From a candidate division WOR-3 bacterium (GTDB taxonomy: Bacteria > Hydrothermota > UBA3073 > JACQXS01): a stretch of DNA of 48,626 bases. Under the pieces are notes generated by a model that ran no database searches, had not been told where the DNA came from, and saw nothing but the letters and a program-made list of their open reading frames with translations. The stretch spans positions 1-48,626 of the forward strand of contig JAGMCN010000013.1 in assembly GCA_023129235.1 (NCBI GenBank), read 5' to 3'. The position numbers and the translations under genes are program-made. This document shows, piece by piece, positions 1 through 48,626 of the stretch; position 1 is the first letter of the stretch; the number at the start of each line of letters is the position of its first letter.

Positions 1-1089
1 TGGTTCCAGCACTCATTTTTGCTTTCAATGACTAATGAGGAGAAATCTTGCTTTAAGTCTGTTCTTACTCATGGGCTTATTCTTGATAAGGAAATGAAGA
101 AAATGTCCAAATCGCTTGGGAATGTCATATCTCCGATGGGCATAATTGAGAAACAAGGGGCAGATATTTTGAGACTTTATTTCTCGGCACTTGATTATAC
201 CTGCGATGTGCCATTTGACCCCGATGGACTTGAATCAGCTGTCACAGCTTACCGAAGAATTCGCAATACATTTAAGTTCTTGCTCGGCAACCTTTATGAT
301 TTTGAAACAAAACTCCCTTACGATGAATTGCTTGAGCTTGACAGGTTAATGTTACACAGACTTGCATTACTTACAAAAAAGGTCAACCTTGCTTATGAAA
401 ACTTTGAATTCTATAAAGTTTATCATAGTATCTACAACTACTGCACGCTTGATTTATCAAAATTTTATCTTGATATATTGAAGGACCGACTTTATACTTA
501 TGGCAAGAATTCTTTGGAGCGAAGAAGCGCCCAAACAACATTATATGAAATTCTATTGGCTCTTGTGAAACTTGTAGCACCTATAATTCCTTTTACCGCA
601 GAGGAAGTTTGGCAACATATAACTCTCAACTCGCAACTCATAACTCATAACTCAAAGAGTGTGCATCTTGAGTTACTCCCTGAAGCCAATCTTGAATGGA
701 TAGACGAAAAACTTGCCAAAGACTATGAGCTGATAGAAGCTATACGGGATGATATTCTTCTTGCACTTGAATCTGCAAGGAACAAAAAACTCATCGGAAA
801 TACACTTAAGGCAAAAGTAACGTTATGGACTAAGGATAAAAGCACGAGGGACTTTCTTCAGCAGAAACTGCCGAACTTACCGAATATTTTCATTGTCTCG
901 CAGGTAAATATTGATAAAGTCCCGGAGATGTCACACCTCAAGAAAGTAGATGCATTTATTGATAAAGCAGAAGGTGAACGATGTGAGCGATGCTGGATAT
1001 GGTCTAAAGATATCGGACTATCTTCAGAACACCCAACACTTTGTCCCAAGTGTATAAATGTATTAAAGGAGGATAATTATGAATGCTAA
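1..1089 (+). CDS. ileS: Isoleucyl-tRNA synthetase, C-terminal part (5' end lies outside the window)
   Basis: The frame is open from base 1. It has the KMSKS motif (KKMSKSLGN), anticodon-binding-type sequence and a C-terminal zinc knuckle (CERCW...CPKC). The classic ileS-lspA neighbourhood is present. Confidence 0.95.
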   Translation, partial: WFQHSFLLSMTNEEKSCFKSVLTHGLILDKEMKKMSKSLGNVISPMGIIEKQGADILRLYFSALDYTCDVPFDPDGLESAVTAYRRIRNTFKFLLGNLYDFETKLPYDELLELDRLMLHRLALLTKKVNLAYENFEFYKVYHSIYNYCTLDLSKFYLDILKDRLYTYGKNSLERRSAQTTLYEILLALVKLVAPIIPFTAEEVWQHITLNSQLITHNSKSVHLELLPEANLEWIDEKLAKDYELIEAIRDDILLALESARNKKLIGNTLKAKVTLWTKDKSTRDFLQQKLPNLPNIFIVSQVNIDKVPEMSHLKKVDAFIDKAEGERCERCWIWSKDIGLSSEHPTLCPKCINVLKEDNYEC

Positions 1090-1438
1090 AAAACTTGAAT
1101 ATTTTAAGAAACTCCTGCTTGCAAAAAAAAAGGAACTTGAAGATGAATTGGGTGAGCTTGAAGTGAAATTTAATGTCTCGCAACAAGACTCTTCCTCCGA
1201 CCTCTCTTCTCATCCAACGCATGTGGCTGATATTAGCGGAGATGCAGAAGATAGGGAATCTCGCTCTTGTTTAATCACTTCAATGGTTGAAGAACTTGCT
1301 CAAGTCAACCGTGCTATTAAAAAAATATATTCTGACTCCTATGGGATTTGCGAAAAGTGTAACTCCAAAATATCGCCGAAAAGGCTTGAGGCAATCCCTT
1401 ATGCAGAACTTTGTATTAAATGTGGAAAAAATTCTTAA
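1079..1438 (+). CDS. DksA/TraR-family C4 zinc-finger protein
   Basis: 119 aa with a charged helical N-terminus and C-terminal CEKC-N17-CIKC. It overlaps the ileS stop by 11 nt. Confidence 0.8.
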   Translation: MNAKKLEYFKKLLLAKKKELEDELGELEVKFNVSQQDSSSDLSSHPTHVADISGDAEDRESRSCLITSMVEELAQVNRAIKKIYSDSYGICEKCNSKISPKRLEAIPYAELCIKCGKNS

Positions 1439-1872
1439 CGCTTTTGCACGGCATTCTGCGAACCAGAATCTTCTGGATAAGTCTAATTGTCCTTGTTGCA
1501 GACCAATTAACGAAATTCTGGGTTTGGAAAACCAACGCAAATGTGTCAGTTATTGGAGATTTTCTGAGAATTACTACCACTCAAAATCCTTATGGAATTT
1601 TTGGGCTCCGTTATAAAATCCCTATTCTCCCAATTACCGGCCTTGCGATTTGTGCAATCTTTATAATATTATATAAATCTAAACTGCTTCCGCTTTCTCT
1701 GATATTAGGAGGAGCAATTGGAAATTTTATAGACCGTATAAGAATCGGTGCGGTTATAGACTGGATTGATATTGGGGTAAATAACACCAGATGGTATGTC
1801 TTTAATATTGCAGATGCAAGCATAACTATTGGAATCCTCTGGCTCATCCTCAAGGAAATAAAAAGAAAGTGA
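1420..1872 (+). CDS. lspA: Lipoprotein signal peptidase (signal peptidase II)
   Basis: 150 aa with 4 TM segments. Conserved LTK, GGAIGNFIDR and FNIADASI motifs are present. Confidence 0.9.
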   Translation: MWKKFLTLLHGILRTRIFWISLIVLVADQLTKFWVWKTNANVSVIGDFLRITTTQNPYGIFGLRYKIPILPITGLAICAIFIILYKSKLLPLSLILGGAIGNFIDRIRIGAVIDWIDIGVNNTRWYVFNIADASITIGILWLILKEIKRK

Positions 1873-1897
1873 AAAATTCTAAAATGGATTTAGAAAT

Positions 1898-2018: not shown

Positions 2019-3707
2019 ATGATGGTAATGCGTAAATTGAGAAAAAAGATGAGAGTATTTCTTTGGTTTGCTATCGTTGTATTTGTAGCTGGAATGACTG
2101 CTATGATGGTGGGGGACGGAGGACGAAAACCTACTCCAACAGAACAAGGAAAAGTTGGTGAAATTTACATAAAACCTACTTCTGCTTGGCAGAAAATTAA
2201 GAGCTGGACCCGCAAAGAGAAAATACCTCTTTCTTATCGGGACTACTCAAATCTTCTTGAACACTACAAGAAACAGGGAATCCCAGCCTGGAAATGCAAG
2301 AACCTTGCTTTCAGCACGCTCGTAGAAGAAGTTTTAGTAACTCAGGAAATGAAAAAGAGAGGAATTGAACTTACAGATGAAGAAGTTGTTGAAATCATTA
2401 AAAATAATCCACCACCTGAATTATTACAGGATACTCTTCTCCTCACAAATGGTGAGTTTGATTATAATAAATACCTCGCTATTATATCTGACCCATCGAA
2501 CATTAGATGGCTCCAGTCTTATGAACTTCTGATAAGAAGTCAGGTGCCAAGAGAAATCCTATATCAAACTATAACATCAGCGGCAAGACCTACAACCATT
2601 GACCTTATTGAAGCTTATGCTCATTCCCACTTGAAACTTACACTGGAATACGCATTAATCCCCAATCCCCAATCCCCAATCTCCAATCCCGAGTTACTGG
2701 AATATTACAATACTCATCAGGATGAATTTATGCTTCAAGAGGAGCCAATTATAAATTATGTTGTCTTTCAAGTCCCAATATCCGCAGAAGATGAAGATTA
2801 CACAAAAGAAATTGCTCAGGAGATTGCAGATTTTGCTCAGGAAGGTGCTTCCCTTGATAGCTTGGCAATAGAATACGGCTGTCAAATCATACAAACTCAT
2901 TCACGATTCACGATACAGGGTTCACGATTCACGAAAAAAGACGATGGATACCATATAATAAAGGAAGAGAAAGAATTGATTTTACCTATCCGACCGTCTG
3001 ATGAAAGCTTCGTTCTCACAGAAGATAAAGCATCCGATTTTATATCTGCCGCTAAATCTGATTTCCTCTCCACCGCAAAATCTTATGATTTAGAAGTCCA
3101 TAAAGGTACGATTTCCGAACTGCCTATCCCTGCTGACCTCTCTTACATTAACCTTGCTGAAAAAGATAAAATTATAGGTCCCATTGAAGGACATAATTGC
3201 TTTTATGTCCTTCATACTCTTGGAATACAAGAATCTCCTGTTCCGGAATTCTCTACCCTATCCGATAAAGTGCGAGATAAATATTATCGCTCCAAGGCAC
3301 AAGAACTTGCCCAAAAACTACTTGACAAAATAACGGGTAGGTTGAAGCCCTCGCTTCAACCTTTTAGGGAAGTCTTACAAGCTAACGGATTTCCTGTTGA
3401 AACCCGGGAATTTTCGGTAGGGGCGATTTATGAATCGCCCTTGTTCGCAGAATCCCGTGGACAGGAGATTTTCCTCAAAGCTTCAAATCTTCCCGAGAAC
3501 GAGACTGGAATTGTGTCAACCGAAGATGGCATTTATCTCGTTCACTGCTTAAAGCACGAAAAACCAGTTCAAGAAGAAATTGAAAAAGCTATCCCTGAAG
3601 TGTATCCCGACTGGATAAAAGAGGAAAAGGAAATGATTTACGAAGAGTGGCTTGCGAACCTAAAAACATCTGCAGACATAAAAGACTACCGATACAAAAT
3701 CCACTAA
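2019..3707 (+). CDS. PpiD/SurA-N-like periplasmic chaperone, membrane anchored
   Basis: 562 aa. The N-terminus (MRKLRKKMRVFLWFAIVVFVAG) is a signal anchor typical of PpiD-like proteins. An AGGAGGA RBS lies 4-7 nt upstream. Two nucleotide-repeat insertions sit inside the gene (see findings). Confidence 0.5.
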   Translation: MMVMRKLRKKMRVFLWFAIVVFVAGMTAMMVGDGGRKPTPTEQGKVGEIYIKPTSAWQKIKSWTRKEKIPLSYRDYSNLLEHYKKQGIPAWKCKNLAFSTLVEEVLVTQEMKKRGIELTDEEVVEIIKNNPPPELLQDTLLLTNGEFDYNKYLAIISDPSNIRWLQSYELLIRSQVPREILYQTITSAARPTTIDLIEAYAHSHLKLTLEYALIPNPQSPISNPELLEYYNTHQDEFMLQEEPIINYVVFQVPISAEDEDYTKEIAQEIADFAQEGASLDSLAIEYGCQIIQTHSRFTIQGSRFTKKDDGYHIIKEEKELILPIRPSDESFVLTEDKASDFISAAKSDFLSTAKSYDLEVHKGTISELPIPADLSYINLAEKDKIIGPIEGHNCFYVLHTLGIQESPVPEFSTLSDKVRDKYYRSKAQELAQKLLDKITGRLKPSLQPFREVLQANGFPVETREFSVGAIYESPLFAESRGQEIFLKASNLPENETGIVSTEDGIYLVHCLKHEKPVQEEIEKAIPEVYPDWIKEEKEMIYEEWLANLKTSADIKDYRYKIH

Positions 3708-3734
3708 CCCCGCTCAGGATAGCATTAAATCCTT

Positions 3735-3848
3735 AATCTGTAATCTACGTCCGCGTCCATCTGCGTTATCTGCGGGGAAAGAAAAGCTTTTTATCTTTGT
3801 GCGCTTTGTGGTTTAAAAATATTATATCTGTAAAATCTGTGGTTGCGG
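3735..3848. repeat. Word-repeat array (ATCTG/GCGT words, two ...GTGGTT ends)
   Basis: Sequence reads aatctgtaatctacgtccgcgtccatctgcgttatctgcgg ... ctttgtgcgctttgtggtt ... atctgtaaaatctgtggtt. It is the reverse-orientation vocabulary of the 39317-39429 element. Confidence 0.5.
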
Positions 3849-13130: not shown

Positions 13131-14068
13131 TTTGATAAGTAATCCAGCAATTCCTGCATATCAGGAGGCAGAGGAGCTTGAAGACTTATCTCTTTTTTGC
13201 TTATTGGATGTATGAATGCGAGAGACTCTGCATGTAATGCCTGGCGAGTCATTATCTGCATAGTTTTATTGAACTCCTCCAAAGGAACTTCTGGTGGGCG
13301 AGCTCTCCCATCATATGTTAAGTCTCCCACAACAGGGTGATTCAAATGAGAAAGGTGAACCCTTATCTGATGAGTTCTTCCTGTCTCAAGCTTTACCGCA
13401 AGATGGGTTATATACTTAAATTCCTTGATAGTCTTAAAATAAGTAACGGCACTTCTTGAGCGAAGAGGAGTTACCGCCATTTGCTTTCTCTCAATCGTAT
13501 GTCTTCCAATAGGCGCATCTATTGTTCCTTCTGGAAGTCCCATTTTTCCCCACACAAATGCAATATATTTGCGTTTAAATTTATGTAGCTCAACATCACG
13601 GGCAAGGAGAGTTAAGGCAATATCTGATTTTGCAAATACCAACAGTCCACTAGTATGCTGGTCCAGACGATGCAGGACTCCGGGTCTTGTCCGTTCAGTT
13701 TGAAAGCTAAGGTCACAGTGATGGAGAAGAGCATTTACAAGTGTTCCGGTAGGATGCCCAGGCGCCGGATGAGTTACCATACCGGGTGGTTTATTTACTA
13801 CGATTACATCTGCGTCCTCATACGCGATATCAAGAGGAATTGCTTCTGGGATAACTTTAAATCTGGTGGGCTTTTCGTAATTTACAACAACTTTATCCCC
13901 GGGATTCAGATTTGTATGAACCTTTACTGGATGGTCATTTACAAGGACCTTCCCTTCCAGAATTAGTCTCTGAATCTGAGTCCTTGATACACCAATCCCT
14001 GCTTTGTATAGATATTTATCAAGTCGTATCTTCTCTTTGGGTCTTGCTATCCTTGTAAATTCGGTCAT
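13127..14068 (-). CDS. rluD: RluA-family 23S rRNA pseudouridine synthase
   Basis: N-terminal S4 domain, the catalytic HRLDQHTSGLLVFAK motif, and GRTHQIRVH. Confidence 0.9.
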   Translation of the reverse strand: MTEFTRIARPKEKIRLDKYLYKAGIGVSRTQIQRLILEGKVLVNDHPVKVHTNLNPGDKVVVNYEKPTRFKVIPEAIPLDIAYEDADVIVVNKPPGMVTHPAPGHPTGTLVNALLHHCDLSFQTERTRPGVLHRLDQHTSGLLVFAKSDIALTLLARDVELHKFKRKYIAFVWGKMGLPEGTIDAPIGRHTIERKQMAVTPLRSRSAVTYFKTIKEFKYITHLAVKLETGRTHQIRVHLSHLNHPVVGDLTYDGRARPPEVPLEEFNKTMQIMTRQALHAESLAFIHPISKKEISLQAPLPPDMQELLDYLSK

Positions 14069-14134
14069 CTTTTAAAATCTACTTCTATAAAAGCATTTCG
14101 TCAACATTTTTTATCCGAGAGCCAGAACCTTTTT

Positions 14135-14190
14135 AACCACAGAAGGCACGGAGAAATAGATTGTGTTTAAAGGTTTAAGGGTTTAAAGGG
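14135..14190. repeat. Word-repeat array (AACCACAGAAGG... followed by GGTTTAAR octamers)
   Basis: Sequence reads aaccacagaaggcacggag ... aaaggttt aagggttt aaaggg. Confidence 0.5.
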
Positions 14191-14195
14191 CAATA

Positions 14196-15656
14196 TTACA
14201 GAACGTAGGACACCTGTATTCTCCAAGAATAAACATTCATCAGTGGTGTGGCGGCAACATCAATGTTAAGGTTTTTGAAGAGCTTCCATCCAAACCCAGC
14301 AGTTTTTGTAAATGATGGACCGCAAAGAGAACTTGTCTCTGTTTTTTGCCCTTTTTCTTCAAGGATTGAGGAGCTATAGGTCTCTGTTGCCAGCAATCCA
14401 AGTCTGAAAGATAAGCCCTTTCCAATGGTGTATTCCATCCCAAACGGGACTTTTATATAGATTGTTTTAGAAGAATAACTTTCCTCTAATTCTTCTCCGC
14501 ATAAAGTTCCTTGCATAGGTAAGTTGAGATACTCGTAGGACACACAGACACCAAATCCTGCAACAAGGTCAGATGTAACATTAATTTCCCCTCCTGCTTT
14601 TAAAAAACCTGTCACTACGGTCGCTTCTCCTTCAAGAGAGTCGTGTGAAAAGTCAGAGGAAATAGTTGTATCGCTACTATAATTAGTAGTATCGGAACCA
14701 TCGTAATCATATCTGTCGTAGCGGTAAAAGTAAAAAGAGCTATCCAATGCACTTGATTTAGCTTTTCCTTTTCCTGCATAAGTCATTCCAGCTATATGAA
14801 AAGTTAGCATATCAGATAACTTATTTGAATATTTGCCACCAACTCCAATACTAAAGGGAGATACTATTGCTTCCTCTTTTGTAAAACTATTGTTGGTTCT
14901 TGCTGACATACTCACATGTCCACTCGTTGGGCTATATTGGCTAATCCTTACGGTAGAATCGAAATCTTCTTGTTCAGAATACAAATTTGTGCTCTCATCA
15001 TTGAGTTGAAAATCACTAATTAACTCTATGCTACTACTTTTCCCCAAGTTCCGAAACCATCCCAGAGTAATTGAGTGAGCCAAAGTTGAGTTCTTGTACT
15101 CATAATTATGCTCGCGAATATCTATATCTCTATAATAATCATAGTGGTTGCTCGTAGAATCTAATGAATTTCTGACAGATATATCTTTCATACTGTATGG
15201 AGAGTTGTCATACTTGTATTTGATACCAAAAGTTGTCTTATCTGAAAGTTTCTTGGAAATAAGCAATGCTCCCCTCCATTGTTCTTGTTGCCATTCTTCC
15301 TTGTCCAAAGAATAATATTCATCATCATATACAGAACTCGTGCGTTCTCTAAAAGATTCATTGCCACAGGTTTTGATTTTACCGCAGACCCCTAATCTAA
15401 GTCCAAGAGGACCTGGAATCACACATACTAACCTGTTAGGGAATTCCCCAGCAATTCCATTCTTTTCTGGTAATCGTGCCGGGTTCCACAACATATCAGT
15501 AAGATTATCCGAAATTATACCCGTGAGTTCTCTTCCCAAACATTCCATACGAAGTGATGGATATATTTCAGCTTCTGGCACAGGAATACCTGGCACATCG
15601 CATAGCAATCTACCACACAGGAAAGTGCTACTAAAAACAAGTAAAAAGATTCTCAT
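14196..15656 (-). CDS. Hypothetical secreted / outer-membrane beta-barrel-like protein
   Basis: 486 aa with a signal peptide (MRIFLLVFSSTFLCG), Ser/Tyr/Asp-rich sequence and an alternating C-terminal strand. AAGGAGGA RBS. Confidence 0.5.
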   Translation of the reverse strand: MRIFLLVFSSTFLCGRLLCDVPGIPVPEAEIYPSLRMECLGRELTGIISDNLTDMLWNPARLPEKNGIAGEFPNRLVCVIPGPLGLRLGVCGKIKTCGNESFRERTSSVYDDEYYSLDKEEWQQEQWRGALLISKKLSDKTTFGIKYKYDNSPYSMKDISVRNSLDSTSNHYDYYRDIDIREHNYEYKNSTLAHSITLGWFRNLGKSSSIELISDFQLNDESTNLYSEQEDFDSTVRISQYSPTSGHVSMSARTNNSFTKEEAIVSPFSIGVGGKYSNKLSDMLTFHIAGMTYAGKGKAKSSALDSSFYFYRYDRYDYDGSDTTNYSSDTTISSDFSHDSLEGEATVVTGFLKAGGEINVTSDLVAGFGVCVSYEYLNLPMQGTLCGEELEESYSSKTIYIKVPFGMEYTIGKGLSFRLGLLATETYSSSILEEKGQKTETSSLCGPSFTKTAGFGWKLFKNLNIDVAATPLMNVYSWRIQVSYVL

Positions 15657-15730
15657 AATGTCCTCCTTTTCTTAGCTTAATATATATTTATCCTGCAAAG
15701 CACAAAAAGTCAAGTCAAAAGGTAAAGTGC

Positions 15731-15758
15731 TTGACATTTTAGCTTTATTCCCTATAAT
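15731..15758 (+). promoter_or_regulatory. Consensus sigma70 promoter (TTGACA-16-TATAAT)
   Basis: Perfect hexamers at 15731-15736 and 15753-15758, pointing towards the repeat at 15789-15907 and the ORF at 15949. Confidence 0.6.
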
Positions 15759-15788
15759 CTGATGTAAAAGATAGATATTTCTAAAAAA

Positions 15789-15907
15789 TAGCACACAGAT
15801 TCACACAGATTGAAAAGATGAACACGGATTTAGATAAAATAAATTTTCTGTGGCAATCTGTTTTATCTCCCGTCAAGTCGGGACAGATGTGAATACCTGC
15901 GTGCTGA
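15789..15907. repeat. Degenerate palindromic word-repeat element containing the 19-mer core
   Basis: It contains tagcacacagattcacacagattgaaaagatgaacacggatt and a degenerate complementary arm (acagatgtgaatacctgcgtgctga), with an internal cccg-tcaagt-cggg hairpin. Confidence 0.6.
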
Positions 15908-15948
15908 TGTTTTAGTTTTAGAAAAACTAAACTATTGCAATTTGATAG

Positions 15949-16350
15949 ATGGGAATTTTTATATTCTTTGTCTTGCTCGCTGAACCATCGGATTCTTTTA
16001 TACAAGGTAGGCTGAATCATTCTCTTCAACCCGATGAGTCCAGCGTGGGGAAGAAATATAGCGGGCAGACACATAGGTCTGCCCCTACAGCAGATAGATG
16101 GATTAGTCGTGATAAGTTTCATCACTTCTCTTATTCGCTTGGGCTTACAGGACTTTCATACCATATTTATCATTGCCAATTTAATAACCCAAATCCAGAG
16201 GCAAGATATTTCTCTATCTCCCTTACAGCAGTAGCAGGAATTTCAAAAGAACTATACGATAAATTCTATAAAAAAAGCATCTTCTCTTACAAAGACCTTG
16301 TCTGGGATGCAGTTGGCATAACAGTTGGCAGTCTTTTGTTCTTGAGATAA
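15949..16350 (+). CDS. Hypothetical small membrane/lipoprotein, possibly YfiM/DUF2279-like
   Basis: 133 aa with a hydrophobic N-terminus. The DRWISRDKFHHFSYS motif resembles DUF2279. No clear RBS. Confidence 0.4.
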   Translation: MGIFIFFVLLAEPSDSFIQGRLNHSLQPDESSVGKKYSGQTHRSAPTADRWISRDKFHHFSYSLGLTGLSYHIYHCQFNNPNPEARYFSISLTAVAGISKELYDKFYKKSIFSYKDLVWDAVGITVGSLLFLR

Positions 16351-16368
16351 ATGAGAAGAAGAACAGTG

Positions 16369-16509
16369 AACCACAAAGAAATGATTAAATAAAATGCCAC
16401 GAAATCACCAAATCACAAAACTACACAAAAGAATTATATTATATAACTTTGGTGGAATTTAGCGTCTTAGTGTTTTCGTGGCAAATTAATCTTTGTGCCC
16501 TTTGTGGTT
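16369..16509. repeat. 141-bp imperfect palindromic word-repeat element (AACCACAAAG ... CTTTGTGGTT)
   Basis: Three complementary block pairs: aaccacaaag/ctttgtggtt, gccacgaaa/tttcgtggc, caccaaa/tttggtg. Confidence 0.7.
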
Positions 16510-16515
16510 AAAGCA

Positions 16516-18900: not shown

Positions 18901-18909
18901 CTCCATTTT

Positions 18910-19073
18910 AACCACGAATTATCCGAAGGATCCATATGGACACGAAAAAGATTAGCACACAGATTCACACAGATTAAAAAGATAATCACAGATTGCAGAA
19001 AAGATTAACCACAAAGGCACAAAGATTGGAGATTAAGGGTTTAAAGGTTCAGGGGTTCAAGGGGTTAGGAGTT
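18910..19073. repeat. Half palindromic element (left arm only) plus AACCACAAAG word and G-rich octamer array
   Basis: Sequence reads aaccacgaattatccgaaggatccatatggacacgaaaaagattagcacacagattcacacagatt..., then aaccacaaaggcacaaag, then gggtttaa aggttcag gggttcaa ggggttag gagtt. Confidence 0.7.
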
Positions 19074-19111
19074 TTGCGGAGATAAAAGGTTGGAGCGAGG
19101 GGGTCACAAGC

Positions 19112-27406: not shown

Positions 27407-27413
27407 TGAAACA

Positions 27414-27935: not shown

Positions 27936-28007
27936 ATATTTTGCTTGACCTAATCTTTTCTGTCGTATAAAGTAAAGAATAACCAACGAGTAGAGCAAAA
28001 ATTGGTA

Positions 28008-28709: not shown

Positions 28710-28744
28710 TTCTGACTCCAGTCGCTGACTTGAGAATAGAGAAA

Positions 28745-30007: not shown

Positions 30008-30230
30008 GGAAGCATTAAAAAGGATTGAGGAAATTGTTGGTAAGCTTGAGCAAGGAGATGTCTCGCTTGATGATTCGTTAAAGCTTTACGAAGAAGGGCA
30101 ATCTTTAATCAAATTCTGTAGAGAGAAACTTACAAAAGTAGAGGAGAAAGTAAGGGAACTCGTCCACACAGAAAAAGGGGATTTTAAGCTAAAGGATACA
30201 AGAATAGAAAAGAGTGAAGAAGAGAGATAA
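29991..30230 (+). CDS. xseB: Exodeoxyribonuclease VII small subunit
   Basis: 79 aa with FEEALKRIEEIVGKLEQGDVSLDDSLKLYEEG. It overlaps the xseA stop. Confidence 0.9.
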   Translation: MQMKFEEALKRIEEIVGKLEQGDVSLDDSLKLYEEGQSLIKFCREKLTKVEEKVRELVHTEKGDFKLKDTRIEKSEEER

Positions 30231-30235
30231 GCATT

Positions 30236-30401
30236 AACCACGAATGACACGAATTATCACGAAAAAGATTAGCACACAGATTCACACAGATTGGAAAGAT
30301 AGTCACAGATTATATTCTATCAAGACTGTGTAAATCTATTTTATCTGTGAACATCTGTGTGCAGTTTTCTAATTCGTGTCCATTTGTGTTAATTCGTGGT
30401 T
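30236..30401. repeat. Full-length 166-bp imperfect palindromic element (AACCACGAA ... TTCGTGGTT), copy 1
   Basis: About 93% identical (10 substitutions and 1 indel) to 35232-35398. It contains the 19-mer core at 30271-30289. Confidence 0.85.
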
Positions 30402-30433
30402 CAAAAATCTTTTTAATGTATTTTCTGATATAA

Positions 30434-32314
30434 ATGGAATATAAACTTATATTAAACCATATTGACTCGCCAAAGGACATTAAGGAATTATCTATAAAAG
30501 AATTAATGGGGCTTGCCAATGAGATTCGTGAGGAGATAATAGATGTTGTTTCAAAAACTGGTGGGCACATTGGTCCCTCGCTTGGTGCAGTAGAGCTTAC
30601 CCTTGCTCTTCATCGGGTATTTGACACCCCAAGAGATAAAATAATCTGGGATGTAGGGCACCAATCTTATGCCCATAAACTTATAACGGGAAGGCGAAAA
30701 GAGATGCACACCCTGCGTCAACACAAAGGTATTGCTGGTTTCCCAAGACGTGAGGAGAGTGAATACGATGCATTTGGGACAGGGCACGCAGGCACCGCAA
30801 TATCCGCTGGTCTTGGAATGGCGGTGGCAAGAGATTTAAATAATGAGAACTTCAAAGTAATAGCTGTAATTGGAGATGGAGCTCTAACCTCTGGAGAATC
30901 TTACGAAGGACTCAATCAGATGGGGTTTGTGCGAGAGGACATGATAGTCGTGCTTAATGATAATCAGATGTCTATATCGGAAAATGTTGGTGGACTTGCG
31001 CATTACTTAAATCGCATTGTTATGACCCCTGTTTATACTTATCTCAAAGCCGATGTTTGGGATCTTATGGACAAGCTCCCAGGGAATATTAGCAAGAAAG
31101 CAAAAGATGTTACAAGAAGATTAAAAGAGGGCTTGAAAAACTTCGTTGTTCCTACCATCTTTTTTGAGGAGCTTGGGGTCAGATATATCGGACCACTTGA
31201 TGGACACGACATCCGAACACTTATAGAAAATCTCAAGTATGTAAAGAATTTAAAAGAGCCGGTGCTTGTCCATATAATAACAGAAAAAGGTAGAGGATAT
31301 AAACCTGCTCTACAAGAACCCGCAAGGTTTCACGGATTATCAGCGTTTGATAAGCTTACAGGTAAATCCTTAAAAGAGAGTAGGGTTCCCACTTATAGTG
31401 ATGTATTTGGAGAAACGATGGTTGAGCTTGCACATAAAGACAAGCGTGTGGTAGCAATAACAGCGGCTATGCCAGATGGAACAGGACTCAGCAAATTTAG
31501 AGATACCTTTCCTGATAGATTTTTTGATGTGGGAATCGCAGAGCAACACGCAGTTACTTTTGCGGCAGGGCTTGCACTTGAGGACTTAAAACCCGTTTGT
31601 GCTATATACTCTACTTTCTTGCAGAGGGGATTTGACCAGGTGCTACATGATGTTTGCCTTCAGCGGATACCCGTTGTTTTTGCAATAGACCGAGCAGGAA
31701 TAGTAGGTGCGGATGGACCCACTCATCAAGGGGCATTTGATTTATCTTATTTGAGATGCATGCCAAATCTTGTGATTGCTGCACCAAAGGATGCTGAGGA
31801 GTTCAGGAATATGTTATACACTGCAATAAATTATACCAAAGGACCTATTGCAATAAGGTATCCGAGAACTAATATCCCGGATGACCTGTCTATTGGTAGG
31901 AGCAAACTCAAGTGTCTGCCCATCGGAGAGGCGGAAGTATTAAAAGAGGGGAAAAAGGGGATGATTTTAGCTATTGGCTCAATGGTATATCCGGCACTGG
32001 AAGTTGCCAAAGAACTGGATTTAGGAGTAGTAAATGCAAGGTTTGTAAAGCCATTGGACGAGAAGTTACTCAAGAAAATTGTAGGGGCATATCACGATAC
32101 ACCCAAAATCATAACTATTGAGGAAAACACGATTAATGGGGGCTTTGGCTCAGCAGGCTTGGAATTCTTTAGCAAACAAGGGATTCAGGTAGACTTACTT
32201 ATGATTGGCTTGCCTGACAAATTTATAGAACATGGCTCTCGCAAAATATTACTTGAAAAATATGGCTTAACTCCTCTCAAGATAAAACAAAGGATAAAGA
32301 AATTTCTTGGGTAA
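30434..32314 (+). CDS. dxs: 1-deoxy-D-xylulose-5-phosphate synthase
   Basis: 626 aa with GGHIGPSLGAVELTLALH, DVGHQSYAHK, the GDGALTSG ThDP motif, and a transketolase-like C-terminus. Confidence 0.95.
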   Translation: MEYKLILNHIDSPKDIKELSIKELMGLANEIREEIIDVVSKTGGHIGPSLGAVELTLALHRVFDTPRDKIIWDVGHQSYAHKLITGRRKEMHTLRQHKGIAGFPRREESEYDAFGTGHAGTAISAGLGMAVARDLNNENFKVIAVIGDGALTSGESYEGLNQMGFVREDMIVVLNDNQMSISENVGGLAHYLNRIVMTPVYTYLKADVWDLMDKLPGNISKKAKDVTRRLKEGLKNFVVPTIFFEELGVRYIGPLDGHDIRTLIENLKYVKNLKEPVLVHIITEKGRGYKPALQEPARFHGLSAFDKLTGKSLKESRVPTYSDVFGETMVELAHKDKRVVAITAAMPDGTGLSKFRDTFPDRFFDVGIAEQHAVTFAAGLALEDLKPVCAIYSTFLQRGFDQVLHDVCLQRIPVVFAIDRAGIVGADGPTHQGAFDLSYLRCMPNLVIAAPKDAEEFRNMLYTAINYTKGPIAIRYPRTNIPDDLSIGRSKLKCLPIGEAEVLKEGKKGMILAIGSMVYPALEVAKELDLGVVNARFVKPLDEKLLKKIVGAYHDTPKIITIEENTINGGFGSAGLEFFSKQGIQVDLLMIGLPDKFIEHGSRKILLEKYGLTPLKIKQRIKKFLG

Positions 32315-32320
32315 GAGAAA

Positions 32321-35001
32321 ATGATTAACGAATTAATTTTGTTTATCTTGCTTACAGTCAATTCGGGAGATACCACTGATATTGATTCTGTTTTTGCTGA
32401 TACCACCGCTGATTCTATTCTTGCTAATACTACGATATTTATTGATAAAAAAGACCTTGAATGGATGCCTATTTCGGAAATTTTAGCTCAACAAATTGGT
32501 ATAGTTAAAACAGGTACAGGATTACACTTTCGGGGTGGAGACATTGGAGAAGAAGTATTTTTTGTAGACGGCATAGAAGTTACAGACCCAGTTTATAGAG
32601 TTCCTTATATAGCTTTCAACCGAGATGCTATTTCTGAAATGTCAATCACTCTTGATGGATTTGATGCAGAATATGGCAACTCTTCTTCGGGAACAGTGAA
32701 TATATTAACCAAAGAAGGCACCGAACATTACGATGGAGAGATAAGGTATTTCACGAACACTGATATTGGAGAGCATAGGTGTAATCTAAATGTTGGTGGA
32801 CCCTTTCCCTTGCTTAAGAATATAACCTTTTTCGCATCTGGCAATATGGATACGACGGATAACCATTCTCCGAGCATTTTGCCAAAGCCAAATAACGCTC
32901 TTTGTCAAGGGAACGGAATGGCAAAGATAAACTGGAAGCCAATATCTTCTTTGAAAATTGGTTTAAAAGGGGAGCTATTACATCAGAAATACAAGATTTA
33001 TGACCACAGGAGGTCTCGTGGAGCCTGGTTTGAAGATTGGCCTCTTTGTAAATTTGACTACTCTGCAATAAATTTATTTCTGACGCATAATATTACTCGC
33101 AATACTTCTTATACTGTAAATTTTGGCAAAACGAGTTCTCATTTTAAGGCAAGCTCACAGGGAGGCAAATCTTATAATGAGTGGAAAACAATTGGGACAC
33201 GACTTCCCTGGGTTAACGTGGCTGAAGATTCTTTGTGGTATAATCCTGAGACGAAGAAATGGAAAGAAGGTTGGTCAGAAGAACGTGCATGGATGTGGTA
33301 TTATGAGAATATAAATAAGCTTGGATATTGGAATCCAAGTGCAGGCAAATGGGAATGGAATTTTGATGCAGAACCAAAGGATATTATTGATGCATTAGAG
33401 TTTAGATGCTATCAAACGGGCACTTATCTTATGAGTTCCACTTCACGAGAAGGCGATGAACTTATTTATACGAGAGGAGATAGTATATATATTTACTATC
33501 ATAAGTTCAATCTTGACAAATATGTTAGGGATTTAGAGAGATATGTGGCGGATGAAATTGGTGCAGCTGAAATTGAGCCATCGGGAAATTTGTATATGAC
33601 AAGATATAACACCGATGAATGGGGCCGTTTTGAGTATAATTTTTATCCATTCTGGGAAAAGCAAGAACATTTAAAGAATTTTGCGAATTTCTCATTTGCC
33701 TCCAGAATAGGTAAATATAACAAAGTAAAATTGGGTGGTTCTTTAAAGAAATACGAGATGAGTTCAACCAAACTTAACTTTATAAATCGCAATCCTTATT
33801 TGAGCAGTTATGAAGGAGAACCAAGAGTTTATGCTGTTTATTTATCGGATAAGATTAAATGCGAGGAATTAAAGATTAATGCTGGAATAAGACTCGATTG
33901 CTTTGACCCGGCTTCAGAATGTTTTATCCATCTTGATAGCCTTGACGCCGGGAAAAAGTCAGCCGAGACAAAATATGGAGTGAGTCCAAGAATTAAAGTG
34001 GCTTTCCATATTTTTGATAAGTCAGTAATATATGTTAATTATGGTCATTTTTATAAACCTCATAACTTTGCTTACTTGTATCAAAATCTTAATCCTGCCT
34101 TGGATATAGGTTGGCCTACGATAGGAAATCCTGACCTTCCGTTGCAAAAACTATTATGTATGCAAGTGGAATAAGACAAAAATTACCTTTAGATTTTGTA
34201 TTAGGAGCATCAGCTTATTGCAAGGATATGAAAAATTTATTGACTACCCGAACAATGACTACAATCTGGCGTCATAAACTTGCATCTTATACCATTGTTG
34301 AGGCAGAAAATGAGGCAAAAGTTTATGGAGTAGATTTAGCTCTAAACAAAAAGATGTCAAATCATCTTTCTGGAGCGATTGGTTATTCTTATTTAAATGC
34401 TAAGGGAGTTGGAGTTTCCCCAGAAGTATGGTTTTATTATCATTATTACGGAATACCTCCCCCTGCAAGCGAGTATTCTTTGGAAGTTGACGAAGTCCAC
34501 TCGTGGAACGCAAATATTCATTTCTCCTTACCTTCTGTAACATCATTTAAACCTATTTCTAATCTAAATTTTGACCTCCGATACACATACACAACAGGTG
34601 CACTTTTTGACAGTACTGGCCAAAAGGGAACGTTTGCAGGAAAGGGAAGGATGCCACCTACTTCTCGGGTAGATATGAGAATAGAGAAAGGATTCAAGAT
34701 TGCTGGAGTAAAATTAGGATTATTTATGAATGTATGGAATGTATTTAATTATCAGAACGTTTTAAATGTCTATTCCGGTACCGGAGAACCTGATAATAAT
34801 GGAAATCCCCCAAAATGGGATGAGACCATCTATACTGCTGTATATAATAGCCGTGAAGAATATTATCAAGAAAGATATGGATGGGATAGTCCTCGAGAGA
34901 TGTATCGGGCTAATGTTGAGAACTGGGGAAAGTATTATAATAACCCAGGCCACTATGATATTCCCCGAATCATCCAATTTGGTCTCGTTACCCATTTTTG
35001 A
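32321..35001 (+). pseudogene. TonB-dependent-receptor-like outer-membrane protein split by a 1-nt frame shift
   Basis: Plug-like motif GLHFRGGDIGEEVFFVDGIEVTDP. ORFs 32321-34174 and 34156-35001 overlap in different frames. Adding one A to the A5 run at 34146-34150 joins them (…NPDLPLQKTIMYASGIRQKL…). Confidence 0.65.
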
Positions 35002-35016
35002 CTTGTGTAAACAGCT

Positions 35017-35226
35017 ATGGACAGAATAACTAAAGAGATGACGGTTGAGGAGGTTATTGAAAGATATTCGGATACAGTGAAGGTTTTTATGGACTTGAGG
35101 ATTCCCTGTCTTGTGTGTGGAGAGCCGTTATGGGGGACTATTGAAGAAACTGCCGAAAGATATAATGTTGAGCTTGATATTTTACTTGAGAAACTTAACC
35201 AGGTTTTGGATAATAAGTTTAAGTAA
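35017..35226 (+). CDS. DUF1858-type small redox/disulfide domain protein
   Basis: 69 aa with TVEEVIERYSDTVKVFMDLRIPCLVCGEPLWGTIEE. Confidence 0.7.
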   Translation: MDRITKEMTVEEVIERYSDTVKVFMDLRIPCLVCGEPLWGTIEETAERYNVELDILLEKLNQVLDNKFK

Positions 35227-35231
35227 TAATT

Positions 35232-35398
35232 AACCACGAAGGATGCGAATTATCACGAAAAAAGGTTAGCACACAGATTCACACAGATTGGAAAGATGGT
35301 CACAGATTATATTCTATCAAGACTGTGCAAATCTATTTTATCTGTGAATATCTGTGTGCAATTTTCTAATTCGTGTCCATTAGCGTTAATTCGTGGTT
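35232..35398. repeat. Full-length 167-bp imperfect palindromic element, copy 2
   Basis: Near-identical twin of 30236-30401, with the 19-mer core at 35268-35286. Confidence 0.85.
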
Positions 35399-35409
35399 CG
35401 AAAGCATAA

Positions 35410-39309: not shown

Positions 39310-39316
39310 TGTATTG

Positions 39317-39429
39317 GACGCAGATGAACGCAGATAGACACAGATTACTTGATAGACAGAGATAGAGATTTGAGATGGAGCTTTTTCTCTATCTCTATCT
39401 CGAGCCTCAACTCTGTGTCCTCTGTGGTT
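39317..39429. repeat. Word-repeat element (GCAGAT words ... CTCTGTGGTT) with central strong hairpin
   Basis: Sequence reads ggacgcagatgaacgcagatagacacagatt. A 14-bp stem pairs 39354-39367 with 39387-39400 at 13 of 14 positions. It ends ctctgtgtcctctgtggtt followed by T-runs. Confidence 0.55.
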
Positions 39430-42840: not shown

Positions 42841-42986
42841 AGATAGCACGCAGATATTCACAGATAAAACAGACTTACACAACAAAGTGTTATTTTTTAT
42901 ACAATCTGTGATAATCTTTTCAATTTGTGTAAATCTGTGTGCTAATGATTTTTCCATACGGATCCTTCGGACGTGTAATTCGTGTT
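42841..42986. repeat. Palindromic word-repeat element, opposite orientation of the 18910 subfamily
   Basis: The right arm (aatctgtgataatc...aatctgtgtgctaat...ccatacggatccttcgg...aattcgtgtt) is approximately the reverse complement of 18910-18994. Confidence 0.7.
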
Positions 42987-43001
42987 CGGGTATTGGGAAT
43001 C

Positions 43002-47410: not shown

Positions 47411-48335
47411 AAGCTTCTACTATTTTCTTCACCAAAGGATGACGCAGGATGTCGCTCTTGGAAAGCTTCACAAATTTAATCCCACGAATTCCTGAAAGCA
47501 CTTGTTGAATATGTAAAAGACCCGAGAGATTAGGATTCTCAAGGTCAATCTGGGTTATATCTCCTGTGATACAAGCTTTTGAGCCTATGCCGAGTCTTGT
47601 AAGGAACATCTTCATCTGCCCTTTTCCTGTGTTCTGAGCTTCATCAAGAATCACGAAAGAATTATCTAAGTTTCTACCTCTCATATAAGCAAGAGGAGCT
47701 ACTTCAATTGTATGGTCTTCAATACAATGCTTTATTTTATCATGAGGCATTAACTCATAAAGAGCGTCATAAAGTGGGCGAAGGTAGGGTTCTATTTTTT
47801 CTTTGAAATCCCCCGGCAGGAACCCAAGCCTTTCTCCTGCCTCCACAGCAGGTCTTGTAAGTATGATTCTACGGAAGACCCCCTTTTTTAAAAGCTCGAC
47901 CGCCTTTGCAACAGCAAGGTAAGTTTTTCCTGTCCCCGCAGGTCCTATACAAACGATTATATCAAAGGAATTTAGTGCTCTCAGATACTCAACTTGCCCA
48001 GAGGTTCTTGGTTTTATCAGTCTTTTGGATGTTACAATAACCTGCTTATTCGTGACTGTGGGGGACGGGTTTGTCCTACCTAAATCTTCCTTAGATATGG
48101 TTTTTCCCTCTTTTATTTCTTTAATCAAGGATAAAATCTTTAGTTTTAAGAGCGAAATTTTCTCGGGTTCACCACAGAGGATGATATTATTACCCCTTAG
48201 CACAATATCTGTATTGAACTCCTTTGAAAGGAGTTTCAGATTTTCATCTAACCTGCCACAAAGCAGTAAGGGGTCTATACCTTTTAAAGAGAGACGCTCT
48301 TTTACCAACTCTTTTCCCGATACGGGATTCCACAA
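47373..48335 (-). CDS. phoH: PhoH-family ATPase
   Basis: 320 aa with Walker A (GPAGTGKTYLAV) and ILDEAQN. TTG start. Confidence 0.9.
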   Translation of the reverse strand: MWNPVSGKELVKERLSLKGIDPLLLCGRLDENLKLLSKEFNTDIVLRGNNIILCGEPEKISLLKLKILSLIKEIKEGKTISKEDLGRTNPSPTVTNKQVIVTSKRLIKPRTSGQVEYLRALNSFDIIVCIGPAGTGKTYLAVAKAVELLKKGVFRRIILTRPAVEAGERLGFLPGDFKEKIEPYLRPLYDALYELMPHDKIKHCIEDHTIEVAPLAYMRGRNLDNSFVILDEAQNTGKGQMKMFLTRLGIGSKACITGDITQIDLENPNLSGLLHIQQVLSGIRGIKFVKLSKSDILRHPLVKKIVEAYEDEAESFRDKH

Positions 48336-48336
48336 A

Positions 48337-48626
48337 TTAGGGTCTCGGAACTTTGAGTTTCCACCCGGGCTGAATAAGAATTGGGCTTTTTATCAAATCC
48401 TTGTTGGCTCTGTAAATCTTGGGCCACATAGCGTAATTTCCACGTCCATAGACATCAGGATATTCCGCAAGTTTCGCAAGCCAATCGCCTTGTCTTACAA
48501 CATATATATCATGCTTCGGCTCTGCTGCATGGAGTTTTGCTATTTCATCTGCAATAGCTAAAATCTCGGCATCAAGCTTTGCGATTTCTCCCTCTAAAAC
48601 AGCTATTTTCTCTTCTTCTTCCGTTA
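48337..48626 (-). CDS. LysM-domain protein, C-terminal part (5' end lies outside the window)
   Basis: My own translation of the minus strand gives ...EEEEKIAVLEGEIAKLDAEILAIADEIAKLHAAEPKHDIYVVRQGDWLAKLAEYPDVYGRGNYAMWPKIYRANKDLIKSPILIQPGWKLKVPRP*. That is a coiled coil followed by a LysM-like fold. It is not in the ORF track. Confidence 0.65.
   Translation of the reverse strand, partial: TEEEEKIAVLEGEIAKLDAEILAIADEIAKLHAAEPKHDIYVVRQGDWLAKLAEYPDVYGRGNYAMWPKIYRANKDLIKSPILIQPGWKLKVPRP

Follow-up and report, generated by a model that had tools for sequence, protein, structure and literature searches.

The intergenic DNA of a 48,626-nucleotide stretch from a candidate division WOR-3 bacterium (contig JAGMCN010000013.1 of assembly GCA_023129235.1; the whole stretch is referred to as the window) carries hairpin elements, the arms of which are built from a few short words in tandem. 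Comparison with related loci in other genomes and metagenomes suggested, with moderate confidence on our part, that these elements are cargo-less copies of cross-phylum 'tandem-word hairpin cassettes' of the type represented by the intervening sequences (IVSs) of 23S rRNA. On the best reading they are filed as a non-rRNA, cargo-less variant of this IVS-type hairpin cassette.

A restricted set of words in the intergenic DNA

The gene set for the word census comprised the long open reading frames (ORFs) and the gene calls on identical public contigs, which left 3.9 kb of the window (about 8%) as intergenic and 44.7 kb, 11.5 times as much, as coding. The canonical 8-mer CACAGATT/AATCTGTG was found in 16 intergenic and no coding copies, followed by ACAGATT (20 versus 1), CACAGAT (21 versus 4), CACGAATT (7 versus 1) and AACCACA (8 versus 2). 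A fixed list of CAC-type words covers 10-38% of 11 listed gaps, compared to 1-2% of dinucleotide-preserving shuffles of the gaps and 1.4% of coding DNA, and six spaced-word arrays of at least three words are present in the window where 0.02 were expected. The intergenic enrichment over a composition-matched shuffle, raised in an earlier note on this DNA, is thereby borne out for the window. The same note described the gaps as largely built from words, which goes too far: in 11 of the 12 listed gaps, whole elements (words, spacers and loop) fill 40-91% of each gap, compared to 10-38% for the words by themselves. One gap listed there, 23305-23675, is a poor example, as its word coverage is 2% and it consists of a doubtful hairpin of ~50 nt and, for the rest, of a conserved dnaA promoter and leader; GGGATTGG at ~23590 lies within this leader and is probably unrelated to the elements.

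The mirrored arms with AACCAC...GTGGTT ends that had been noticed earlier were confirmed as inverted repeats. AACCAC is intergenic in 7 of its 12 occurrences and GTGGTT in 7 of 14; both termini are present in four elements (1898-1989, 16369-16509, 30236-30401 and 35232-35398), and one terminus in others. The G-rich octamers, proposed as a second class of words, are present, although confined to just three runs (14165-14190, 19031-19100 and 22303-22332), each of which is joined to a one-armed array of CAC words; no C-rich run complementary to them was found in the intergenic DNA of the window. Read on the other strand, C-rich runs directly follow three minus-strand stop codons, and a role in Rho loading is a possibility for those three sites only.

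Seven imperfect palindromes of 92-167 nt fold far better than shuffled sequences (z -4 to -10). All elements of the window are given below; D and I numbers denote direct- and inverted-repeat families, and MFE is the minimum free energy of folding.

1898-1989 (unoriented): complete empty hairpin with AACCAC...GTGGTT ends, inverted repeat I2, between lspA and a surA-like gene; left-arm words CACAAAG/CTCAAAG, right-arm words CTTTGTG/CTTCGTG/CTCTGTG; MFE -31.8/-36.0 kcal/mol, z -7.7/-7.2.
3734-3844 (+): two tandem right-arm-only arrays of ATCTGT, ATCTGCG and CTTTGTG words, downstream of the stop of gene 2019-3707; each array terminates in GTGGTT (3808-3813 and 3839-3844); fold z ~0.
14135-14190 (-): one-armed array, assigned by direct-repeat family D7 and word coverage; read on the minus strand, the stop of gene 14196-15656 is followed by C-rich octamers, GTG-type words and GTGGTT.
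15790-15905 (+): complete core hairpin, arm A AGCACACAGATTCACACAGATT-GAAAAGAT-GAACACGGATT, family D2; z -4.1/-4.7; a 20-nt GC mini-hairpin (15868-15887) is nested in the right arm, and a perfect sigma-70 promoter, TTGACA-16-TATAAT, lies just upstream at 15731-15758.
16369-16509 (unoriented): complete empty hairpin, AACCACAAAG...CTTTGTGGTT, inverted repeat I1; inner words CACGAAA, CACCAAA and CACAAAA; z -4.4/-8.6; abuts the start of the radical-SAM gene.
18910-19030 (+): left-arm-only composite of AACCACGAAT..., core arm A and a second array of AACCACAAAGGCACAAAG, families D2 and D8; it contains a small TCCGAAGGA hairpin, and the element as such gives no fold signal.
19031-19100 (+): G-rich octamer run of GGGTTTAA, GGTTCAGG, GGGTTCAA and GGAGTTTT, family D7, with a G-rich cluster at 19037-19074; C-rich on the minus strand, directly 3' of the stop of gene 19112-21301.
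22262-22332 (+): arm A only, GGACACGGAAAAGATTAGCACACAGATTCACACAG fused to GGAGTT octamers (22303-22332), family D2; on the minus strand it comes after the gpsA stop codon.
23375-23425 (unoriented): doubtful small hairpin, ACCACGGGAGG...CTCTCGTG...CTCGTGGT, upstream of the dnaA promoter; z -2.2, word coverage 2%.
30236-30401 (+): complete composite hairpin, outer AACCACGAAT-GACACGAAT-TATCACGAA and inner arm A/arm B, families D2, D4 and D8; 15-nt loop; begins 5 nt past the xseB stop codon; the stretch 30231-30406 gives MFE -66.5 kcal/mol and z -10.1, the best in the window.
35232-35398 (+): second composite hairpin, 94% identical to 30236-30401 (93% over 175 nt in BLAST), family D4; z -7.7; begins a few nt past the stop of an uncalled ORF (35017-35226).
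39316-39429 (unoriented): complete hairpin, outer left words CGCAGAT/CACAGAT, right CTCTGTG ending in GTGGTT, inner words GAGATAGAG/CTCTATCTC; z -4.1/-4.8.
42845-42990 (-): core hairpin running the other way, with arm B leading on the plus strand, z -4.6 (plus strand); a decayed outer right arm (CCATACGGATCCTTCGG, ATTCGTG); between convergent genes.

Architecture of the hairpins

In the predicted folds the words form helices of 7-10 bp (e.g. AACCACGAAT/ATTCGTGGTT and GCACACAGAT/ATCTGTGTGC), and the variable 2-4-nt spacers between words form symmetric internal loops. The core arm A reads AGCACACAGATT-CACACAGATT-GGAAAGATAGT-CACAGATT, of which arm B is an imperfect complement. The core is asymmetric, and its orientation can therefore be defined as plus at 15.8, 30.2 and 35.2 kb and minus at 42.8 kb. 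An outer module, AACCACGAAT-GACACGAAT-TATCACGAA, can surround the inner core, while other copies are made of CACAAAG, CGCAGAT or GAGATAGAG words. The arm unit in the window has the core C-R-C-R-R-A-D and a period of ~9-10 nt, with words matching between the two arms. The modular, word-based construction pointed out earlier is real and constitutes the defining property of the elements. Complete copies begin 5-25 nt after a stop codon, and their loops of 15-25 nt contain no ORF. Among the differences between the near-identical copies at 30.2 and 35.2 kb, two are disruptive, two are compatible with wobble pairing, and one pair, A-T to G-C at 30249/30387, is compensatory.

Insertions relative to a sister genome

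A syntenic sister contig (L064), with a radical-SAM orthologue of 70% identity, has the gene order radical SAM - gpsA - dnaA - tsf/rpsB/rpsI/rplM - HPPK - xseA - xseB - dxs. The orthologous gaps in this contig, compared for presence or absence as suggested in the earlier note, lack the elements. The xseB-dxs gap measures 37 nt in L064 versus 203 nt in the window; the counterpart of the 18910-19030 gap is 62 nt without an element; the hairpin at 16369-16509 is absent, so that both radical-SAM flanks are free of elements; and nothing corresponding is found 3' of gpsA. The stretch 23375-23425 is also absent, with the promoter and leader of dnaA kept, and the promoters of dnaA and of the divergent rplM/HPPK pair are conserved. 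Together with the near-identical copies (94%) at two unrelated loci, 30236-30401 and 35232-35398, this comparison indicates that the window elements are insertions. Public contigs that share the DnaA of the window are 99.98% identical to it and are therefore uninformative on polymorphism.

The ORFs of the window with Pfam matches are all housekeeping genes (ileS, lspA, serS, RNase PH, queF, acyl carrier proteins, gpsA, dnaA, tsf, rpsB, xseAB, dxs, coaX, YbeY, PhoH and others), and about eight ORFs have no Pfam match. No transposase, integrase, Cas, Y1 or DDE domain was found by Pfam in the ORFs of the window, and the earlier remark that the window holds no transposase, integrase or Cas gene therefore stands as far as Pfam sees. 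No shared direct repeat flanks the four complete AACCAC...GTGGTT copies, giving no sign of a target-site duplication.

Several further features of the window were noticed. The two composite hairpins 30236-30401 and 35232-35398 are direct repeats bracketing dxs and three genes; ORFs of 617 and 281 aa after dxs have no Pfam match and do not follow dxs in the sister genome. An uncalled 69-aa DUF1858 ORF (E 6.5e-8) occupies 35017-35226, just before the gap 35227-35409, so that the stretch 35002-35409 is partly coding. Two type IX secretion (Por_Secre_tail) genes in the regions 19112-22198 and 28002-28709 are absent in L064, one of which, 19112-21301, encodes an NHL beta-propeller with an internal DNA periodicity of ~126 nt; a 235-aa ORF of these regions, lacking a Pfam match, is likewise absent. 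These two genes and the 235-aa ORF look like lineage-specific insertions adjoining word elements. The dnaA-tsf gap (24993-25261), with its TTATCCACA boxes, is conserved in L064 and fits an origin of replication. The 133-aa ORF at 15949-16350, located between two elements and hence suspected to be cargo, was rejected as such; it is neither a GxxExxY nor a PF05635 gene and gives only a sub-threshold DUF2279 match.

Relatives that enclose a nuclease gene

Among the related loci, L024 contains a 120-aa ORF bracketed exactly by two complete word-hairpins, which encodes a GxxExxY protein (TIGR04256, E 2e-44; Pfam PDDEXK_3, E 2e-42). A locus from the same metagenome-assembled genome (MAG) as the sister contig, L008, connects this arrangement with the window: its arms are 93-97% identical over 30-38 nt to both arms of 30236-30401, and both also match 42845-42990. 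At its apex, in a position corresponding to the 15-nt loop of the window copies, there is an insertion of ~115 nt encoding the first ~38 residues of a GxxExxY protein, a decayed gene (tblastn E 5e-8; Pfam E 7e-6, above the cut-off). Full gene (L042), 38-codon remnant (L008) and empty hairpin (window) form a deletion series, from which we infer that the empty window copies are probably products of cargo deletion.

Five further GxxExxY homologues, picked solely for sitting on long contigs, all lie inside or directly between word hairpins (5/5), as in L042 with the layout AACCACAGATgaaCACGGATagaCACGGATaaga|ATG...stop|...ATTTGTGtccATCTGTGttcATCTGTGGTT. Three distant homologues on viral contigs (38-43% identity) follow the same grammar with other words, the arm pairs being AACCGCAGAA.../...TTCTGCGGTT, AACATCGGAAT.../...ATTCCGATGTT and AACCGCAAAAG.../...CTTTTCGCGGTT, and arms of such grammar were also found in the cultured carriers Bacteroides finegoldii, Bernardetia, Gemmatirosa and Treponema. 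Across metagenomes, viral contigs and cultured organisms taken together, inverted arms enclose or bracket 13 of 15 GxxExxY genes. The vocabularies vary between elements (CACAGAT, CACGGAT, CACCGAT, CGCCGAT, CGCAGAA, ACGGAAT, CGCGAAAAG, CACAGAGG and CGCAGAGG among the cassettes), while both arms of one element always match. AACCRC...GYGGTT termini recur in L041, L042, L043, L045, L048, L050 and Gemmatirosa, with CACCAC/GTGGTG in B. finegoldii. The right end of the window hairpin 39316-39429, CTCTGTGTCCTCTGTGGT (39411-39428), matches the right arm of the B. finegoldii GxxExxY cassette in 18 of 18 nt, a match independent of the word used in the search. The cargo occupies the apex or, in L024, L045 and Gemmatirosa, the space bounded precisely by a pair of complete hairpins, and empty hairpins outnumber filled ones in every locus set. 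In all ten annotated cases, the GxxExxY cassette points in the same direction as the genes on both sides and is inserted within an operon, as in fabD|X|fabG or between xanthine dehydrogenase subunits.

The enclosure was also evident in a comparison with ordinary genes. The median flanking inverted-repeat score was 48 for 22 cargo genes (GxxExxY plus PF05635, the latter described below) and 18 for 79 ordinary genes (95th percentile 26; Mann-Whitney p 2.8e-10). In blastn-short, the window elements gave 39 matches to cargo arms versus none to control flanks.

The GxxExxY family comprises 29,243 clusters at 50% identity (E <= 1e-3). Most members sit on very short contigs, which fits assembly breaks at the arms. 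The residues D66, E76-x-K78 and Q90xxxY94 are invariant, and the RecB/Cas4-type active site is therefore intact. The nearest solved folds to an AlphaFold2 model of the protein (predicted local distance difference test score, pLDDT, 94) are Cas4 SSO0001, lambda exonuclease, LHK-Exo and MGME1; a PDB sequence search with the GxxExxY profile gave nothing significant, so the placement comes from fold comparison only. GxxExxY is accordingly a predicted minimal Cas4/RecB-like PD-(D/E)XK nuclease. PDDEXK_3 has been listed as 'unknown', with multiple horizontal transfers (PMC3424549). Some proteins of the family have 250-290 aa and two tandem domains, and many gene calls carry N-terminal extensions that read through the left arm. 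At L033 (260-870), which has the highest inverted-repeat score of the metagenome-locus scan, arms of the GxxExxY-cassette grammar enclose a 140-aa ORF, which lacks a Pfam match and has an N-terminus resembling a signal peptide; this ORF may be a third kind of cargo.

Intervening sequences of 23S rRNA and the PF05635 family

One related locus, L017, is an rRNA operon of 41% GC that carries the element twice in nearly identical copies. The first lies in the leader, immediately preceding the 23S gene, and folds with -87 kcal/mol; the second is inserted in helix 25 of the 23S rRNA (position 583 of the Rfam large-subunit (LSU) model), a classic IVS site. The same 23S gene (reverse strand 700-1075 and 1110-1200) has further expansions of 128, 175 and 68 nt at LSU positions ~165, 228 and 290, the two largest of which are hairpins of other vocabularies (AATCAAAA; CTAATTA/TTAGAAA). 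The window copies are not at 23S helix 9, 25 or 45 and lie between protein-coding genes.

The IVS of Coxiella burnetii is located in helix 45 and has a 28-bp terminal stem with an S23p ORF in the loop; immediately before the ORF, the 5' stem arm includes two to three tandem GACAGAT heptamers, the number varying between strains, and the first of these is the site of cleavage by RNase III, which excises the IVS in vitro (PMC4990558). Excision by RNase III is known for the IVSs of Coxiella, Salmonella and Leptospira, and their origin has been called unclear (PMC4990558). The earlier statement that no function is described for this kind of element is consequently too strong, as the Coxiella IVS is a hairpin of the same type with GACAGAT in its stem that is excised by RNase III (PMC4990558), and the word family of the window is itself present in 23S helix 25 in L017.

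Genes of the S23p family outside rRNA were sampled by tblastn with a consensus as probe, giving seven genes. All seven had independently been annotated as 'four helix bundle protein' and match PF05635 ('23S rRNA-intervening sequence protein' in Pfam) with E values of 1e-21 to 1e-31. Inverted tandem-heptamer arrays surround every one of these genes (7/7), which come from Bacteroidota, Spirochaetota, Cyanobacteriota and Chloroflexota, and each shell has its own vocabulary: (TTAGTGA)x15 in Bernardetia, AGTCGGAGG/TCGGAAG in Nostoc punctiforme, (CACTGGT)x13 in Euhalothece, and (AATCCCC)x6 with (AATCGTA)x4 in Planktothrix. The cassettes of Nostoc, Planktothrix, Euhalothece and Chondrinema draw on just the sort of words known from intergenic heptamer arrays (see below), among them AATCCCC/GGGGATT-type and CAGTTA/TAACTGA-type words. 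The seven PF05635 shells all have an array period of 7; in most GxxExxY shells, as in the window, it is 9-10. At L060, L062 and L063, PF05635 genes are embedded in operons for restriction-modification or DISARM, with drmD and an MmeI-type enzyme on either side or N-6 DNA methylases adjacent, to give examples.

Distribution of the word arms

The exact core 21/22-mer retrieved 27 metagenome loci, with GC contents of 31-67%, and seven loci from genome assemblies labelled WOR-3, Cloacimonadota, Porphyromonadaceae and unclassified MAGs; in viral contigs the core 21-mer was not found in exact form. These loci were ascertained by the 21-mer itself, which in part builds in the identity of the word across phyla, but not the grammar that its surroundings share. 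High-GC contigs contain simple hairpins, AACCACAGAT-GCACACAGAT-TCACACAGAT...ATCTGTGTGCATCTGTGGTT, with up to nine tandem decamers, and many of their copies are one-armed and directly 3' of a stop codon. A one-armed AACCAC-GAT-GCACACAGATTCACACAGATT is syntenic upstream of glmS in three high-GC contigs, in which the surrounding intergenic sequence differs:

L013 300-345, L028 140-185 and L029 445-490: glmS half-element, between a small purS-like gene and glmS.

One MAG contig (L003, 140-7220) contains six to eight CAC-word arrays in 8 kb, on the same strand and without a right-arm partner. GC-rich mini-hairpins nested in arms, which resemble the 'small dispersed repeats' of cyanobacteria, were seen in the window (15868-15887), in L017, in L022/L034 and in L025 (1715-1745); one of them, CCCGACTTTGGTCGGG, recurs in contigs of 41% and 66% GC, with a degenerate form in the window. 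Word arrays translate to spurious ORFs, MHTDSHRFTQIHTD... and MSQMHTDAHRCTQMHTDAHRF (L011, L018, L022, L024, L026, L027 and L033), which may be reported by gene callers as hypothetical proteins.

Comparison with known repeat families

Common to the window elements and the IVSs are terminal inverted repeats that make up an extended stem-loop, a small ORF that the loop may contain, stems with 7-nt words in tandem (the two to three GACAGAT of Coxiella being one base from the CACAGAT of the window) and a sporadic, horizontally transferred distribution. Unlike the IVSs, the window copies are without an ORF, and their relatives carry the GxxExxY nuclease instead of S23p; RNase III cleavage has been shown for the IVSs and would apply to the window copies by analogy. 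To our knowledge, and in the literature searched, IVSs have not been described as members of a genome-wide dispersed family.

The resemblance to repetitive extragenic palindromic (REP) sequences, bacterial interspersed mosaic elements (BIMEs) or miniature inverted-repeat transposable elements (MITEs), suggested earlier, holds in that the elements are dispersed, hairpin-forming, extragenic and insertion-polymorphic, but no REP head, REP-associated tyrosine transposase (RAYT), target-site duplication or transposase parent was seen in the loci covered. REPs, BIMEs and REPINs (hairpins formed by paired REPs) are likewise numerous short extragenic palindromes, often just downstream of genes, some composite or mosaic, and with a probable effect on mRNA processing or stability. 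The window elements lack the GTAG/CGTC head, and their arms are 40-80-nt tandem word arrays; the associated gene, for a PD-(D/E)XK nuclease or a four-helix-bundle protein, is located within the palindrome and not between single REPs. No RAYT (Y1 transposase) was found in the window or the annotated related loci. In common with MITEs such as Correia/NEMIS, Nezha, RUP and BOX, the elements have terminal inverted repeats, insertion polymorphism, co-transcription with host genes and non-autonomous copies that, judging from L008 and the window copies, appear to descend from a longer parent with a gene through loss of its inner part; Correia/NEMIS elements are also cut by RNase III in transcripts, and BOX elements are modular. 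The differences lie in the parent, which in window-type cassettes encodes a small PD-(D/E)XK nuclease and no known transposase, as well as in the lack of a target-site duplication, the internally repetitive words of the arms and the span of the element class over many phyla.

Tandem heptamers in intergenic DNA have been reported as the Calothrix repeats, as GGGAATC in Xanthomonas and Nostoc, and as TAACTGA in Beggiatoaceae, cyanobacteria and some Bacteroidetes, with no function or transfer mechanism evident and no association with mobile elements (PMC4692102, PMC4679880). They have in common with the window elements tandem units of 7-9 nt confined to intergenic DNA, nearer the upstream gene and shared by distant phyla; the reports, however, treat simple direct repeats with no inverted partner, enclosed gene or link to IVSs, and the period is 7 versus ~10 nt in the window. 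Integron attC sites are also imperfect palindromes that delimit promoterless gene cassettes and end with AAC...GTT, but the window elements have no RYYYAAC/GTTRRRY consensus, intI, cassette array or extrahelical-base signature, and their neighbours are housekeeping genes in conserved synteny. The clustered regularly interspaced short palindromic repeats (CRISPR), DnaA-box arrays, KOPS (FtsK-orienting polar sequences), DNA-uptake sequences, attC and intrinsic terminators were all rejected, as the defining motifs are lacking or the elements are absent from orthologous gaps. An Rfam search of the window and 20 related loci gave no match at the gathering score and nothing relevant at E <= 1, and a literature search with the word strings returned only primers and eukaryotic sequences.

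A proposed mechanism

In the model that we propose, a full cassette would be an imperfect palindrome with a run of tandem 7-11-nt units in each arm and, at its apex, a short loop or a small gene. The window subtype would be defined by the unit C-R-C-R-R-A-D with a period of ~9-10 nt and AACCRC...GYGGTT termini, the gene of this subtype being the 120-aa GxxExxY protein. Such cassettes would reside in transcribed DNA (directly 3' of stop codons, in leaders, in the spaces separating cistrons or at rRNA helix tips), where pairing of the two arms in the transcript is expected to give a long double-stranded stem with regular interruptions. As in the analogous 23S IVSs, this stem is probably cut by the RNase III of the host, and the window hairpins are thus probably RNase III substrates; the insert would be removed from, or insulated within, the host transcript, leaving the flanking genes or rRNA unharmed. 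The cargo gene, co-oriented with its neighbours, would be expressed from host read-through, and the cutting would release its mRNA. Empty hairpins would arise, probably, by internal deletion of the cargo at the apex and would persist or spread as non-autonomous copies, with the number of words drifting by replication slippage. At the DNA level, the GxxExxY nuclease, acting as a homing enzyme, is a candidate mover.

Several observations weigh against this reading. Four one-armed elements (3734-3844, 14135-14190, 18910-19100 and 22262-32) do not fold and cannot form a stem, and the G-rich octamer runs have no pairing partner. None of 29 pairs in the homologous core (0/29) shows a compensatory change, the copies being too similar. 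Arm mismatches, read in cargo orientation on the sense strand, show no bias of G:U over A:C, and hairpins at the RNA and DNA levels are indistinguishable for this reason; two of the alignments of this mismatch test are spurious. The empty hairpins show no bias relative to gene orientation (9 versus 6). No GxxExxY gene or remnant was detected in the window by tblastn, so the link to a cargo comes from the relatives, and the processing of window copies by RNase III is transferred from the IVSs by analogy. Two of the 15 GxxExxY genes are without inverted arms, one in Sphingomonas having the left arm only and one on a Fusobacteria plasmid having a direct repeat instead. Several loci were found via the 21-mer, inflating the apparent conservation of words across phyla, and neither a target-site duplication at the four complete copies nor a transposase in the window or the annotated related loci was found that would account for mobility.

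Alternative explanations

Part of the evidence for the cassettes would also be compatible with hairpins that are primary, whether autonomous or maintained by the host, into the apexes of which GxxExxY and PF05635 home as separate selfish genes via the shared arm vocabulary; the window copies would then never have been occupied. We regard this, the chief rival or complement of the model, as unlikely, although the cargo always lies at the apex or precisely between a pair of complete hairpins, two unrelated cargo families share the same kind of shell, empty hairpins outnumber filled ones, and the nuclease active site is conserved; PD-(D/E)XK homing endonucleases do exist, I-Ssp6803I being one of them. 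The truncated gene within the otherwise intact arms of L008 shows that cargo deletion does happen, the arrival of empty hairpins at new sites would be left unexplained, and PF05635 and GxxExxY shells have different array periods (7 and ~9-10, respectively), which suggests co-evolution of shell and cargo rather than promiscuous homing. Less probable still is that the elements are of the REP/REPIN or MITE type and moved in trans by a RAYT/IS200-like Y1 or a DDE transposase, with an incidental link to GxxExxY. Numerous extragenic palindromes, some near-identical, their absence at the orthologous sites of the sister genome and a conserved AACCAC...GTGGTT that could be a recognition or cleavage site would all suit such a mover, and the search for one covered the window and annotated contigs rather than the whole genome. 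However, there is no GTAG/CGTC head, the arms consist of 40-80 nt of tandem units compared to the 20-40 nt of a REP, no target-site duplication is found at 1898/1989, 16369/16509, 30236/30401 and 35232/35398, no Y1 or DDE domain occurs in the window or in the gene tables of the annotated sister and GxxExxY contigs, and it is far from random that two particular gene families are the ones enclosed (p 2.8e-10).

That the elements are not mobile at all and are instead host regulatory or structural features under selection, such as 3' stem-loops that end transcription or stabilise the mRNA before them, Rho-loading C-rich tracts or phased arrays (10-nt period) bound by a DNA- or RNA-binding protein, appears very improbable. 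It would account for the start of copies 5-25 nt after stop codons, for a period near one helical turn, for the C-rich runs directly after three minus-strand stops and for the syntenic half-element upstream of glmS in three high-GC contigs, and REP sequences are known as stabilisers of mRNA. Yet the same gaps are empty in a genome with 70%-identical orthologues, in which true promoters are conserved; no element fits the intrinsic-terminator pattern (0 of 23 terminator-like sites with a GC stem and T-run in 14000-33999 overlap an element); the same core lies beside unrelated genes and in rRNA; and an effect of an inserted hairpin on its host is compatible with the cassette model as well. We give hardly any credence to the view that polymerase slippage made functionless simple-sequence repeats, which became palindromic by chance or through inverted duplication on the spot. 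Word copy number does vary between copies and between Coxiella strains, and heptamer repeats to which no function has been assigned are over-represented in bacterial intergenic DNA (PMC4692102, PMC4679880), but slippage does not produce matched inverted arms, AACCRC/GYGGTT termini conserved from 31 to 67% GC, near-identical 170-nt copies at two loci or the specific enclosure of two gene families.

Implications

Starting from the preferred reading of the elements as cargo-less IVS-type cassettes, a wider and considerably more tentative proposal is that one cross-phylum selfish class unites the IVSs, the intergenic heptamer arrays, the orphan families GxxExxY and PF05635 and the dispersed empty hairpins, with the GxxExxY nuclease driving the spread by homing at the apex. 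Equally tentatively, the heptamer arrays in this class would include the cyanobacterial short tandemly repeated repetitive (STRR) sequences, GGGAATC of Xanthomonas and Nostoc and TAACTGA of Beggiatoaceae. In such a unified class, a cassette would represent a new kind of mobile element, tolerated in operons and at the tips of rRNA helices because RNase III removes it without a need for religation. RNase III-excised rRNA IVSs and intergenic tandem heptamers are already known; the connection of both with a cargo and with empty hairpins is apparently new. We found no paper and no Rfam family that links word-built hairpins, GxxExxY or PF05635 cargo and IVSs with one another, or that reports dispersed empty copies, in a search that was incomplete, so that a prior description is possible.

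If the cassette reading is true, a single element class would account for about 40% of the intergenic DNA of this genome, as well as for similar tracts in Bacteroides, cyanobacteria, soil Acidobacteria-like organisms and others. The origin of the 23S rRNA intervening sequences has been open since 1990, and the cassettes would provide both a population from which they could arise and an explanation of why their stems contain tandem heptamers. Two very large families with no known function, one related to Avd of diversity-generating retroelements and the other to Cas4, would receive a first genomic context and a testable role, and the very short contigs around these genes would be explained by assembly breaks at the arms. 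For annotators, the spurious word-array ORFs would serve as a warning. The elements of this window hint at a much larger, unrecognised element class, which would predict abundant RNase III processing sites within operons and would bear on operon architecture and mRNA stability in many uncultured lineages.

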